64,000 nt of DNA from the NCBI RefSeq assembly GCF_011045215.1, contig NZ_CP049201.1. One strand, given 5' to 3'. Position numbers: made by a program. This document shows, one piece after another, positions 60,001 to 63,000 of this stretch. This DNA comes from Escherichia coli. GTDB lineage: Bacteria; Pseudomonadota; Gammaproteobacteria; Enterobacterales; Enterobacteriaceae. How positions within the stretch are numbered: position 1 is the first letter of the stretch; every line of letters begins with the position of its first letter.

Positions 60001-63000
60001 GAGCCAGAATATGGCGGATTTGCGTGCTTTGGCTTAAGGCATCGTAAACAGGCAGGATAGAACCGCCCGGAATGCCCGTCACAATCTTAATGCCCTGCTG
60101 TTCCAGGAAATGAACGATAAATTCTGCGCCGGTAAAGCGCTTACGCGTCGATGATGTGCCCGAACTTGCCATGCTCCAGTCCTTTTTTTCTGGGCCGACT
60201 TTCCGGGAGGTGCTTAAACGAAAAACCCCGCCCGGTTTGCGCCGGCGGGGTTTTGGAATCGTGTGTTGTTCCAGTCCCTACGGCGCATTGCCGACGACCA
60301 CCACCACACGCACGACGACCACTGCGGCGGATGGCGCAGTTGGTAGTAGTTTTGCGTTGAACATGGAAGTAGTCATTGGGGACCTTGTTGGTTTTGTGTT
60401 TAACAATATTTATACAAGCACAGCTTTACAGGGGAGACAATGGAAAATTTTTCAGCAAGGGAAAATTGAGGGGTTGATCACATTTTGCACTGAATTGCAG
60501 GTAACAAAAAACCCCGCCGGAGCGAGGTTTCGTCAGCCGCCTGCGGCTGGTAACCGCAAAGCACACTGTATTATGTCAACACTGAAAGTATACCTGTTCC
60601 GCGCAGAACGCGCAATTTCGGCACGAATTTTGACGTATTTAGTACATAGTTGAGTATCGATCACAGTTTGCGTTTTGTCTAAACATTACTGTTTATTTAT
60701 ACAGTAAACTTCTATAATATCACTGTACGCAATGTGTTATGCGGGGGCCGCATCGTTACCCGGCGCACTAAGTCCTGGCTGAAACGGGTGGTGCCGTCAG
60801 CGCCTTAACCCCGCGTGAGCACACTGTGTTATGTCAACAAGCACAACGTTTCTCCTTGAGATACCGCGTGCACAACAGCTGGCAACAGGCAGCGGAAAGG
60901 TACGTCAGCTGGCAGTGCTCCTGAACCACAGGAGACGCGTATGAGCCTGGTGGATATCGCCATTCTTATCCTCAAACTCATTGTTGCAGCACTGCAACTG
61001 CTTGATGCTGTTCTGAAATACCTGAAGTAATTCAGATTCAAGTCGCACCAAAGGGGAGCGGGTAACCGCTCCCCTTTTATATTCTGCTTGTGGGTTGGAG
61101 TTGGATGCGATGCTGACGCATCTTATCCGACTTACCATCCCTTCCGGCAACATTTATTGCCGCTTTTGTTTACATATTCTGCCGTTTTTCTTTTCGCCAT
61201 TCCTGGCACATATCTGGCTAACATTCATCAATGTGATAGATTCCTCTCCCGCATTTATGGGAATGCGTAGTGACTTATTCTAATTATTTTTATAAAAGCA
61301 TCCGTGATAATGAAAAGGCATAGAAACGTCAATTTGTTATTGATGTTGGTATTACTCGTGGCCGTCGGTCAGATGGCGCAAACCATTTATATTCCAGCTA
61401 TTGCAGATATGGCGCGCGATCTCAACGTCCGTGAAGGGGCGGTGCAGAGCGTAATGGGCGCTTATCTGCTGACTTACGGTGTCTCGCAGCTGTTTTATGG
61501 CCCGATATCCGACCGCGTGGGTCGCCGACCAGTGATCCTCGTCGGAATGTCCATTTTTATGCTGGCAACGCTGGTCGCGGTCACGACCTCCAGTTTGACG
61601 GTATTGATTGCCGCCAGCGCGATGCAGGGGATGGGCACCGGCGTTGGCGGCGTAATGGCGCGTACTTTGCCGCGTGATTTATATGAACGGACACAGTTGC
61701 GCCATGCTAACAGCCTGTTAAACATGGGGATTCTTGTCAGTCCGTTGCTCGCACCGCTAATCGGCGGTCTGCTGGATACGATGTGGAACTGGCGCGCCTG
61801 TTATCTCTTTTTGTTGGTTCTTTGTGCTGGTGTGACCTTCAGTATGGCCCGCTGGATGCCGGAAACACGTCCGGTCGATGCACCGCGCACGCGCCTGCTT
61901 ACCAGTTATAAAACGCTTTTCGGTAACGGCGGTTTTAACTGTTATTTGCTGATGCTGATTGGCGGTCTGGCCGGGATTGCCGCCTTTGAAGCCTGCTCCG
62001 GCGTGCTGATGGGCGCGGTGTTAGGGCTGAGCAGTATGACGGTCAGTATTTTGTTTATTCTGCCGATTCCGGCGGCATTTTTTGGGGCATGGTTTGCCGG
62101 GCGTCCTAATAAACGCTTCTCAACGTTGATGTGGCAGTCGGTTATCTGCTGCCTGCTGGCTGGCTTGCTGATGTGGATCCCCGACTGGTTTGGCGTGATG
62201 GATGTCTGGACGCTGCTTGTTCCCGCCGCGCTGTTCTTTTTCGGTGCCGGGATGCTGTTTCCGCTGGCGACCAGCGGCGCGATGGAGCCGTTCCCCTTCC
62301 TGGCGGGCACGGCTGGCGCGCTGGTCGGTGGTCTGCAAAACATTGGTTCCGGCGTGCTGGCGTCGCTATCAGCGATGTTGCCGCAAACCGGTCAGGGCAG
62401 CCTGGGGTTGTTGATGACCTTAATGGGATTGTTGATCGTGCTGTGCTGGCTACCGCTGGCAACGCGGATGTCGCATCAGGGGCAGCCCGTTTAAGCGCAC
62501 ATCATCGCAGCATCGTCATCAGCTCCATGGGAGAACGATGCTGCTTTATCAGATCACGCATCACCCGCATATGCGGTGCGGAGTAAGAATAAAACGCCTG
62601 ATAGCCCGCACATAGCATGCTGTCTGGCGTCTCCTCCCGAGCGTGCGGACACAGCCGATGCCAGTCGCACGCCTGGCAGTCACGGCGCGATTGCGGGTTT
62701 TCGCTGCCACACCATTTTTGTAGGGTGGCGTCAAAAAGCTCAATCGAGATACGACTGATATCTGCCCGCACCCAACACTCGAACAGGGCAATTAAAAATT
62801 TCCCCCACAGCTCTGCTGTCACCGAAGCGGCCGTCATATCGCCCCGGTCATCAAATTCAAGATGGGGAATAAGCTGTACGGAGCGGATGCCCCGCTGTTT
62901 GAAATTGTGATAAAAATCGGCAGGTTGCAGAGTATCCTTATACTCTACAACCAGTTTATGCCTGTCCTCTTCAGCATCAATGACCTGACTTCCTGTCATG

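Follow-up and report, generated by a model that had tools for sequence, protein, structure and literature searches.

Among chromosomal type I toxin-antitoxin systems, the tisB/istR-1 pair is the best characterised, and it serves as the textbook example of both ribosome standby and SOS-linked persister formation. Three other enterobacterial pairs whose toxin mRNAs are processed and depend on standby, dinQ/agrB, zorO/orzO, and shoB/ohsC, have a like layout: a small hydrophobic toxin follows a long structured 5' UTR that needs processing, and, as in tisB/istR, a divergent sRNA pairs far upstream of the ribosome-binding site (PMC4147584, PMC7708055). The dinQ gene is also LexA-controlled (PMC3567139). 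The hok/sok system differs, in that hok requires translation of the overlapping mok ORF and is activated by 3' processing. For tisB, by contrast, tisA is not conserved as an ORF, and activation combines 5' processing with ribosome standby.

A 64-kb stretch of Escherichia coli DNA (the window) was analysed, and its interval 60506-61083 is, as judged from the sequence, the tisB/istR-1 type I toxin-antitoxin module of this species. Almost certainly, the best explanation is an intact copy of the chromosomal module with its known mechanism, and the sequence holds no contradiction to it. The related pairs named above are not sequence-homologous; the RNA and the peptide in the window are specific matches to the istR and TisB models. 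What was established here is that all sequence elements are present and intact, where they lie, and that they are conserved across genera; the biochemical steps are taken from the literature. The features are as follows.

60506-60645, minus strand: istR-2, the 140-nt SOS-induced long form, which includes the whole of IstR-1; transferred from the K-12 annotation
60506-60578, minus strand: istR-1, the constitutive antitoxin sRNA, 73 nt in RefSeq; transferred from K-12 positions 3853118-3853190
60508-60531, minus strand: hairpin of the istR intrinsic terminator, then a U6 run; terminator scan and fold
60560-60581, minus strand: IstR target-recognition segment (IstR-1 5' tail); 22-nt direct repeat with 60818-60839
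60587-60615, minus strand: istR-1 promoter, with -35 TTGCGC (60615-60610), 17-nt spacer, and -10 TATACT (60592-60587); read from the sequence
60653-60681, minus strand: istR-2 promoter, with -35 TAGACA (60681-60676), 17-nt spacer, and -10 GATACT (60658-60653)
60687-60706, no strand: LexA box (SOS box) TACTGTTTATTTATACAGTA, identical to K-12
60713-60718, plus strand: tisAB promoter -10 TATAAT, 6 nt upstream of +1; read from the sequence
60725-61083, plus strand: tisAB (tisB) primary mRNA, +1 to about +359; 3' end inferred from the published length and the terminator
60725-60765, plus strand: leader, +1 to +41, processed off to give the active +42 mRNA in the published model (PMC6690012)
60774-60801, plus strand: 5' stem-loop (+50 to +64) and pseudoknot stem 2 (+54-58 with +73-77), identical to K-12
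60818-60839, plus strand: ribosome standby site and IstR-1 target; repeat and PMC6690012
60831-60944, plus strand: tisA ORF, 37 codons, identical to K-12 TisA
60912-60940, plus strand: predicted hairpin sequestering the tisB Shine-Dalgarno sequence AGGAGA (60930-60935), in agreement with PMC6690012
60941-61030, plus strand: tisB coding sequence, a 29-aa membrane toxin, N2S variant; ORF and family models
61050-61077, plus strand: tisAB intrinsic terminator, a 12-bp stem with a 4-nt loop, then TTTTATATT

The module aligns without indels to the annotated K-12 MG1655 order ivbL, istR, tisB, ysdE, emrD (b4618 and b4616 for tisB and istR), with the same gene set and the same neighbours, ivbL and emrD; its place between ilvBN-ivbL and emrD is the usual one in Escherichia. 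Through this alignment istR-2 was carried over from the K-12 RefSeq ncRNA b4616 (3853118-3853257). Rfam family RF01400 (istR) has a full-length match at 60506-60635 on the minus strand, spanning model positions 1-130 of 130; the score is 144.8 bits where the gathering score is 45, with E = 6.7e-31. No other Rfam family exceeds its threshold anywhere in the window. An earlier sequence-only reading had proposed a tisB locus with a LexA box and, upstream of tisAB and divergent from it, istR on the minus strand, and all three were found. The similarity to K-12 istR that it expected within 60500-60700 is there: 137 of 140 istR-2 positions are identical, with SNPs at 60537, 60594, and 60644. Its approximate span for istR, 60530-60690, had the right strand and region, but the K-12 RefSeq alignment places each end 24-45 nt away. 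The lower limit falls inside the terminator hairpin (about 60508-60531), and 60646-60690 is promoter DNA rather than transcript because the alignment puts IstR-2 at 60506-60645. RefSeq annotates tisB only in non-K-12 genomes and leaves out istR, so annotation transfer alone would miss this RNA gene.

The predicted fold of IstR-1 (-30.1 kcal/mol) leaves the 5' tail free and forms an internal hairpin in addition to the terminator hairpin. The terminator stem is nearly invariant among 15 sequences. In the predicted fold the SNP at 60537 would turn an A-U pair of the internal hairpin into G.U, so that the pair is kept. Several other candidates were rejected. The Rfam matches naRNA4 (61056-61132; 23.5 bits against 59.5), CsrC (61050-61077), and P6 (60195-60252) are all below threshold; this trio represents the tisAB terminator hairpin, the REP-like flank, and a hairpin that follows the ivbL leader ORF and is presumably the attenuator terminator of ilvBN. 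A 165-aa ORF at 60156-60653 on the plus strand and other small ORFs are mechanical calls, antisense to ivbL and istR, and unsupported.

Transcription control is laid out divergently and without overlap: the IstR-2 5' end at 60645 (minus strand), the LexA box, and the tisAB +1 at 60725 (plus strand). The same order of istR, LexA box, and tisAB recurs in 14 of 14 loci of other taxa, and in all 14 of these other-species loci a LexA-type box lies at equal distance from istR. The box TACTGTTTATTTATACAGTA has two mismatches to a perfect palindrome, both within the AT spacer. Nowhere else in the 64 kb does such a site occur, and none of 100 shuffled sequences contains a match; the looser CTGT-N8-ACAG core alone is not significant, with at least one match in 49 of 100 shuffles. 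The tisAB -35 position (about 60690-60695) falls within the box, which thereby overlaps the tisAB -35 and spacer and also lies 5 nt upstream of the istR-2 -35.

The tisAB -10 and both istR-1 hexamers agree with the MG1655 entries in Table 1 of PMC11264685. The istR-1 hexamer regions are nearly invariant across 15 loci from several genera (AATTGC in all, followed by G in 14 of 15), as is GTATA-T of the -10 region, which is invariant. The istR-2 promoter scores 9 of 12 matches in the promoter scan and ends 7 nt short of the IstR-2 5' end; its K-12 counterpart is TGGACA/GATACT (PMC11264685 Table 1), and the SNP at 60680 makes the -35 of the window a minority variant. LexA-dependent SOS induction of tisAB and istR-2, and constitutive expression of IstR-1, are known from PMC2826370 and PMC11264685; the binding site and the promoters are what was read here.

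The tisAB start is fixed by register: ten nucleotide identities given in PMC7708055 (C50, C51, G54, C55, U56, G57, C74, A75, G76, and C77) all fit +1 = 60725, and this register only. The published mRNA length is 359 nt (PMC2577331). The +42 and +106 5' ends (PMC6690012) map to 60766 and 60830. Processing from +1 to +42, IstR-1-dependent RNase III cleavage to +106, and membrane depolarisation by TisB are all published (PMC6690012, PMC4147584). The minimum free energy fold predicts that leader residues 60727-60746 pair with 60809-60829, covering part of the standby site. The folds separate the two forms weakly, however, with a mean unpaired probability for the standby site of 0.38 in the +1 form and 0.47 in the +42 form, and so small a predicted opening provides no independent proof of the processing model. 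The UTR block +46 to +115 is more conserved (93%) than the tisB coding sequence (82%). Two stem pairs of the tisAB terminator co-vary across genera (GC/AU four times and AU/GC five times).

Comparison of 13 loci, from Escherichia, Salmonella, Citrobacter, Pseudenterobacter, Siccibacter, Franconibacter, and further Enterobacteriaceae (six or more genera), bears on the translational elements. The 5' stem-loop and pseudoknot, as defined in PMC7708055, are paired in 100% of cells across these loci, and pseudoknot pair 54-77 shows one compensatory change (G-C in nine loci, G.U in three, A-U in one). The two plus-strand copies of the 22-nt repeat, published as the istR repeat (PMC2577331), are identical at 21 of 22 positions. 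Pairing of IstR-1 with the standby site therefore gives 21 Watson-Crick pairs and one G.U, the latter from the single A/G difference. This target lies 123 nt before the tisB AUG, and it contains the RNase III cleavage that yields the +106 mRNA with its 5' end at 60830 (PMC6690012). Pairing of 20 to 22 of the 22 positions is kept in 13 of 13 loci, against a shuffle maximum of 16.5 of 22, and one column co-varies (T/T in five loci, C/C in six). The loci were gathered by a degenerate DNA pattern search of genome contigs, a pattern that partly forces conservation on the istR side. When whole-length IstR-1 was run through RNAduplex with each 366-nt tile of the window, the scores were uninformative: the method ignores intramolecular structure, and the tisAB tile (-78 kcal/mol) stood only modestly ahead of background tiles (about -71); the ungapped 22-nt pairing test with shuffles was used instead.

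The toxin itself, MSLVDIAILILKLIVAALQLLDAVLKYLK (29 aa), passes three family models: Pfam PF13939 (37.6 bits, cut-off 25) and the NCBIfam equivalogs NF011340 (69.9, cut-off 53) and TIGR04459 (61.5, cut-off 38), the latter two over the full length 1-29. Its N2S substitution arises from G at 60945, where K-12 has A. This is the consensus variant, present in 85% of E. coli, with the K-12 form in the minority, and it is toxic (PMC11264685). In folds of the +1, +42, and +106 forms, both minimum free energy and partition function, the segment from the Shine-Dalgarno sequence to the AUG has an unpaired probability of about 0.2, and the hairpin over the ribosome-binding site comes out clearly. GGAG is paired in the local fold at 13 of 13 loci.

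Together with published work (PMC6690012, PMC7708055, PMC4147584, PMC2826370), this arrangement suggests how the module would operate. In undamaged cells LexA bound at 60687-60706 would repress both the tisAB and istR-2 promoters because of where its box lies, and IstR-1 would be made constitutively from its own TTGCGC/TATACT promoter. DNA damage would lead to LexA cleavage and to the primary transcript from 60725. That transcript should be translationally inert, since a hairpin closes off the tisB Shine-Dalgarno sequence and AUG, and the standby site is covered by the 5' leader. Loss of the first 41 nt would yield the +42 mRNA, in which the stem-loop/pseudoknot and the single-stranded standby site would recruit 30S subunits through protein S1; these would then shift about 100 nt downstream to the tisB ribosome-binding site. 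Pairing of the IstR-1 5' tail would block standby and, through RNase III cleavage, leave the inactive +106 mRNA. Where tisB mRNA exceeds IstR-1, TisB would enter the inner membrane, collapse the proton motive force, and promote persister formation.

Other arrangements of the same parts were weighed. That IstR is a true cis-antisense RNA overlapping tisAB, of the hok/sok or convergent type I kind, rather than a divergent RNA of limited complementarity, is a reading that the location of istR on the opposite strand might invite, as might the words "expected on the opposite strand" in the earlier reading. The coordinates already refute it and leave it next to no credence: the starts at 60645 and 60725 lie 79 nt apart and face away from each other, and complementarity is limited to the 22-nt repeat, whose copies are 258 nt apart. 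The term "antisense-acting" in the earlier reading thus holds for pairing in trans, and not for overlap, the transcription units being separate. A translated tisA leader with tisB coupled to it in mok/hok style, IstR-1 blocking the tisA start, draws on the tisA ATG at 60831 inside the IstR-1 target, on a tisA stop that overlaps the tisB ATG (ATGA, 60941-60944), and on retention of the ORF in more than 99% of locus-carrying E. coli (PMC11264685). Coupling is very unlikely: ACG stands at the tisA start position in 8 of 13 mRNAs, and 9 of 12 loci of other taxa have no tisA-like ORF, yet tisB, target, and pairing are kept. TisA matches no protein family in Pfam and NCBIfam searches, and the literature reports tisA as untranslated (PMC2826370) and standby as the mechanism (PMC6690012).

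Decay of the toxin or antitoxin in this lineage is a further reading. Of 5426 complete E. coli genomes, 4358 carry the module and 1068, about a fifth, lack it, which makes it dispensable; relative to K-12, this copy has three istR SNPs and one tisB SNP. Against this, promoters, LexA box, standby site, pseudoknot, Shine-Dalgarno sequence, ORF, and both terminators are all intact, the tisB change gives the toxic majority variant, the 60537 SNP retains its base pair, and the module is one nucleotide in 581 away from many E. coli alleles; a decayed remnant is extremely improbable. A selected function of IstR-2 itself (a second target or response shut-off), which would make the extension 60579-60645 more than a by-product of the LexA-controlled promoter, is unlikely. 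In its favour, five pairs of an IstR-2-specific hairpin are kept by compensatory changes in 15 sequences, conservation extends to the istR-2 promoter and the LexA box, and deletion of the promoter unexpectedly reduced persister levels (PMC2826370). IstR-2 reportedly does not repress tisB translation, though (PMC11264685, PMC2826370), the most distant loci align poorly across the 5' extension, and the hairpin signal is confounded because the same region holds the istR-1 promoter, a constraint at the DNA level.

The intact tisB/istR-1 module, as the preferred reading, can be compared with its nearest alleles. Relative to K-12, the LexA box, the tisAB 5' UTR to the start codon, standby site, pseudoknot, Shine-Dalgarno sequence, and TisA ORF are identical, and 60685-60944, a stretch that begins shortly before the box and runs to the tisB start codon, has zero differences. 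Besides TisB N2S and the istR-2 -35 (TAGACA here, TGGACA in K-12), the SNPs are those at 60537, 60594, 60644, and 60684, and one at 61063 in the terminator loop. At 60594 the istR strand has G, not C, at -14 of the istR-1 promoter, which breaks one IstR-2-specific hairpin pair. The C at 60684 lies 3 nt outside the LexA box and has no exact match among the 5426 complete E. coli genomes. It is the only difference from O157:H7 strain TR01 (NZ_CP033605.1; T there), which also carries N2S and is identical at 580 of 581 nt over 60500-61080; the flank 61084-61143 (REP region) diverges more. That no E. coli matched 60400-61150 at more than 98.5% identity had suggested an unusual allele, a view rejected on the 99.8% identity of the module itself to alleles in many complete genomes. 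Against the best-matching genome there are 11 differences; nine fall in that downstream flank, and the remaining two are at 60684 and, upstream of the module, at 60482.

The locus assignment is correct but ordinary: the system is already known, and the result has no novelty and little weight as a discovery. Its useful outcome is a base-accurate annotation of both IstR forms, the three promoters, the LexA box, the +1, +42, and +106 ends, the standby site, pseudoknot, ribosome-binding-site hairpin, tisB, and both terminators. It is conceivable, if doubtful, that the promoter-region variants (the istR-2 -35, istR-1 -14, and C at 60684) might shift the ratio of IstR-1 and IstR-2 to tisB mRNA and thereby alter the SOS threshold for TisB-dependent persistence, and that, alongside, the IstR-2 hairpin could signal a further IstR-2 function. 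The strain is a carrier of an intact majority-type allele, TisB N2S.

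The tisB/istR-1 locus (60506-61083) is a known system at its standard genomic position. The sequence-only reading was right on all essentials: tisB, a canonical LexA box, and istR divergent on the minus strand upstream of tisAB. Its sole correction concerns the guessed istR span, about 60530-60690; the region holds, and alignment with K-12 istR, the check it proposed, moves the ends to 60506-60645. Coordinates were transferred through an indel-free alignment of window positions 60150-61400 to K-12 MG1655 (NC_000913.3), which places both IstR-1 and IstR-2. The features are:

Within 60200-61400, minus strand: end of ilvB and the ivbL leader peptide gene, first in order, then an intergenic stretch
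60506-60578, minus: IstR-1 (K-12 RefSeq annotation transfer)
60506-60645, minus: IstR-2 (same transfer)
60615-60610 and 60592-60587, minus: istR-1 promoter, TTGCGC and TATACT, agreeing with the MG1655 table (PMC11264685)
60681-60676 and 60658-60653, minus: istR-2 promoter, -35 TAGACA (TGGACA in MG1655; PMC11264685) and GATACT
60687-60706: LexA box TACTGTTTATTTATACAGTA, a near match to the palindrome
60713-60718, plus: tisAB promoter -10, TATAAT, agreeing with the MG1655 table (PMC11264685)
60725, plus: tisAB +1, from which the next four features and the tisB AUG are numbered
60766, plus: +42
60774-60788, plus: 5' stem-loop
60778-60782 with 60797-60801, plus: pseudoknot stem 2
60830, plus: +106
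60831-60944, plus: tisA, 37-codon ORF read from the sequence
60930-60935, plus: tisB Shine-Dalgarno, AGGAGA
60941-61030, plus: tisB, 29-codon ORF encoding MSLVDIAILILKLIVAALQLLDAVLKYLK, AUG at +217 (ORF reading and K-12 RefSeq transfer)
61050-61077, plus: strong tisAB terminator hairpin, from the sequence
61154-61228, minus: ysdE (K-12 RefSeq transfer)
61310: emrD start (K-12 RefSeq transfer)

The 29-residue TisB peptide scores above cut-off with both NCBIfam TisB equivalog models (69.9 bits, cut-off 53; 61.5 bits, cut-off 38) and with Pfam PF13939. The istR covariance model matches at full length (60506-60635, minus; 144.8 bits; gathering score, 45), and istR is the only Rfam family over threshold in the entire 64-kb window. 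The LexA box is likewise the sole window site within three mismatches of the LexA palindrome, matched in 0 of 100 shuffles; the CTGT-N8-ACAG core by itself is not significant as LexA evidence. The box spans the tisAB -35 and spacer region, and its end lies 5 nt from the istR-2 -35. LexA controls tisB and IstR-2, IstR-1 is constitutive, and TisB has been linked to the formation of persisters following ciprofloxacin treatment (PMC2826370). Among the RefSeq records compared, IstR-1 and IstR-2 are annotated only for K-12; PGAP-annotated E. coli records (e.g., O157:H7 TR01) list tisB without an istR feature.

With every element intact, decay of the locus is excluded. So is a cis-overlapping antisense RNA, which the coordinates contradict: istR and tisAB do not overlap, and their divergent 5' ends are separated by 79 nt. 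The antisense relation arises because a 22-nt sequence occurs twice on the plus strand (60560-60581 and 60818-60839; 21 of 22 positions identical), the single A/G difference giving a G.U pair in the RNA duplex. The second copy, which is exactly the published repeat AGCACACTGTGTTATGTCAACA (PMC2577331), includes the tisA ATG and precedes the tisB AUG by 123 nt.

The +1 register was set by ten nucleotide identities from the pseudoknot study (C50, C51, G54, C55, U56, G57, C74, A75, G76, and C77; PMC7708055), all of which fit position 60725; neighboring registers fit at most three. Since the published RNA length is 359 nt (PMC2577331), the 3' end falls near 61083, directly past the terminator. In the published mechanism, the primary +1 mRNA is untranslatable, and loss of 41 nt yields the +42 mRNA, whose standby site is single-stranded and binds 30S via protein S1 some 100 nt ahead of the sequestered ribosome binding site; IstR-1 pairing blocks standby, and the RNase III cleavage it triggers generates the inert +106 form (PMC6690012; PMC4147584). 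Standby needs the 5' pseudoknot (PMC7708055). Because 60685-60944 has zero differences from K-12, these tisAB RNA elements are identical to those of the experimentally studied system. Predicted folds of all three mRNA forms contain the hairpin that sequesters the ribosome binding site; predicted standby-site opening among them is small, so that step is taken from the literature. Two stretches of tisAB RNA for which an antisense relation to the uxaA and dinD 3' ends has been reported (GCATCGTTACCCGGCGCACT and CAACTGCTTGATGCTG, respectively; PMC2577331) are unchanged at 60750-60769 and 60995-61010 (plus).

Differences from K-12 within the locus are:

60537: C (K-12, T); IstR internal hairpin A-U becomes G.U, the pair being retained in the predicted fold
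60594: C (K-12, G); breaks one IstR-2-specific hairpin pair, and is G at istR-1 promoter -14 on the istR strand
60644: A (K-12, G); IstR-2 nucleotide 2
60680: T (K-12, C); makes the istR-2 -35 TAGACA
60684: C (K-12, T); 3 nt beyond the LexA box
60945: G (K-12, A); TisB N2S, which is the E. coli consensus (85%) and has been shown to be toxic (PMC11264685)
61063: T (K-12, A); tisAB terminator loop

O157:H7 TR01 shares all of these except 60684, and across 60500-61080 the best-matching complete E. coli genomes differ by one base (99.8% identity). Best identity is lower over 60400-61150 (98.5%), mainly because of the REP-containing flank 61084-61143, where nine of the 11 mismatches to the best-matching genome fall. 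This flank, downstream of the tisAB terminator, is a SNP cluster relative to both K-12 and O157; a single REP element has been reported there (PMC2577331), and the REP-derived naRNA4 family matches below threshold (23.5 bits against 59.5). Nearby, the ysdE product is MNVSQICARNGEKKNGRICKQKRQ in the window and MNVSQIYARNGELFSGRICKQKRQ in K-12, with nine substitutions clustered inside 61185-61209. The ivbL leader peptide (60278-60376, minus) carries L6F relative to K-12 (MTTSMFNAK...), as in O157:H7 TR01.

The whole module (60455-61140) is a presence/absence polymorphism in E. coli, found in 4358 of 5426 complete genomes and missing from the remainder; copy-number variation of tis/istR has been published (PMC11264685). 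In module-less E. coli MS8320, ivbL and ysdE are 244 nt apart, and about 100 nt of unrelated sequence replaces ~60455-61140. Elsewhere, positions 1-25000 match complete E. coli genomes poorly (best match, 71% coverage and 95.1% identity) and look like an accessory island; features annotated under that match include setC, yicL, a YopB/SseC-family type III secretion translocon subunit, and a GTPase-family protein. The last 14 kb of the window has no match above 98.8% among the 5426 complete E. coli genomes, none of which is therefore a close relative of the source strain.

A degenerate pattern of conserved istR positions collected 14 istR loci from species-representative genomes (Salmonella enterica arizonae and diarizonae, seven Citrobacter, Pseudenterobacter, Siccibacter, Franconibacter, two Enterobacteriaceae, and E. 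coli E69). Each of the 14 has an Rfam istR match (66.7-145.3 bits) and carries a LexA-type box, the istR-to-box distance being the same throughout, and all 12 that reach far enough encode a 29-residue TisB. The 22-nt IstR-target pairing is retained at 20-22 of 22 positions in 13 of 13 cases (shuffle maximum, 16.5), the collecting pattern having fixed some istR-side but no target-side positions; one pairing column co-varies (T/T in five, C/C in six). In the mRNA alignment, every cell of the 5' stem and of pseudoknot stem 2 is paired (100%), pseudoknot pair 54-77 is G-C nine times, G.U three times, and A-U once, and two terminator pairs co-vary. The Shine-Dalgarno is predicted to be paired in 13 of 13 local folds. 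Within the tisB 5' UTR, the window shares a segment of 33 nt (60845-60877, plus) only with E. coli E69, S. diarizonae, and two Citrobacter; eight other taxa lack it, which creates two classes of standby-site-to-AUG spacing, ~123 nt and ~88-92 nt.

These comparisons also bear on two further proposals. A separate function for IstR-2 draws on compensatory changes in five pairs of its specific hairpin (60579-60645, minus; columns 35-58 of the istR alignment, 15 sequences), a region that also contains the istR-1 promoter. The IstR-2 role is termed unclear in the literature (PMC2826370); a function of this kind seems rather improbable. Expression of tisB via translational coupling through tisA is unlikely, since tisB and the target site persist while the tisA start is ACG in eight of 13 mRNAs and nine of the 12 other loci lack any tisA-like ORF. 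Outside Escherichia, the tisA ORF is unconserved, and existing ORFs differ in frame or sequence. By this comparison, tisA would fit a non-coding RNA structure, not a gene. Pairwise identity is 93% across UTR positions +46 to +115, 82% in the tisB coding sequence, and 68% from +1 to +45, a pattern that fits what strong selection on the RNA would produce.
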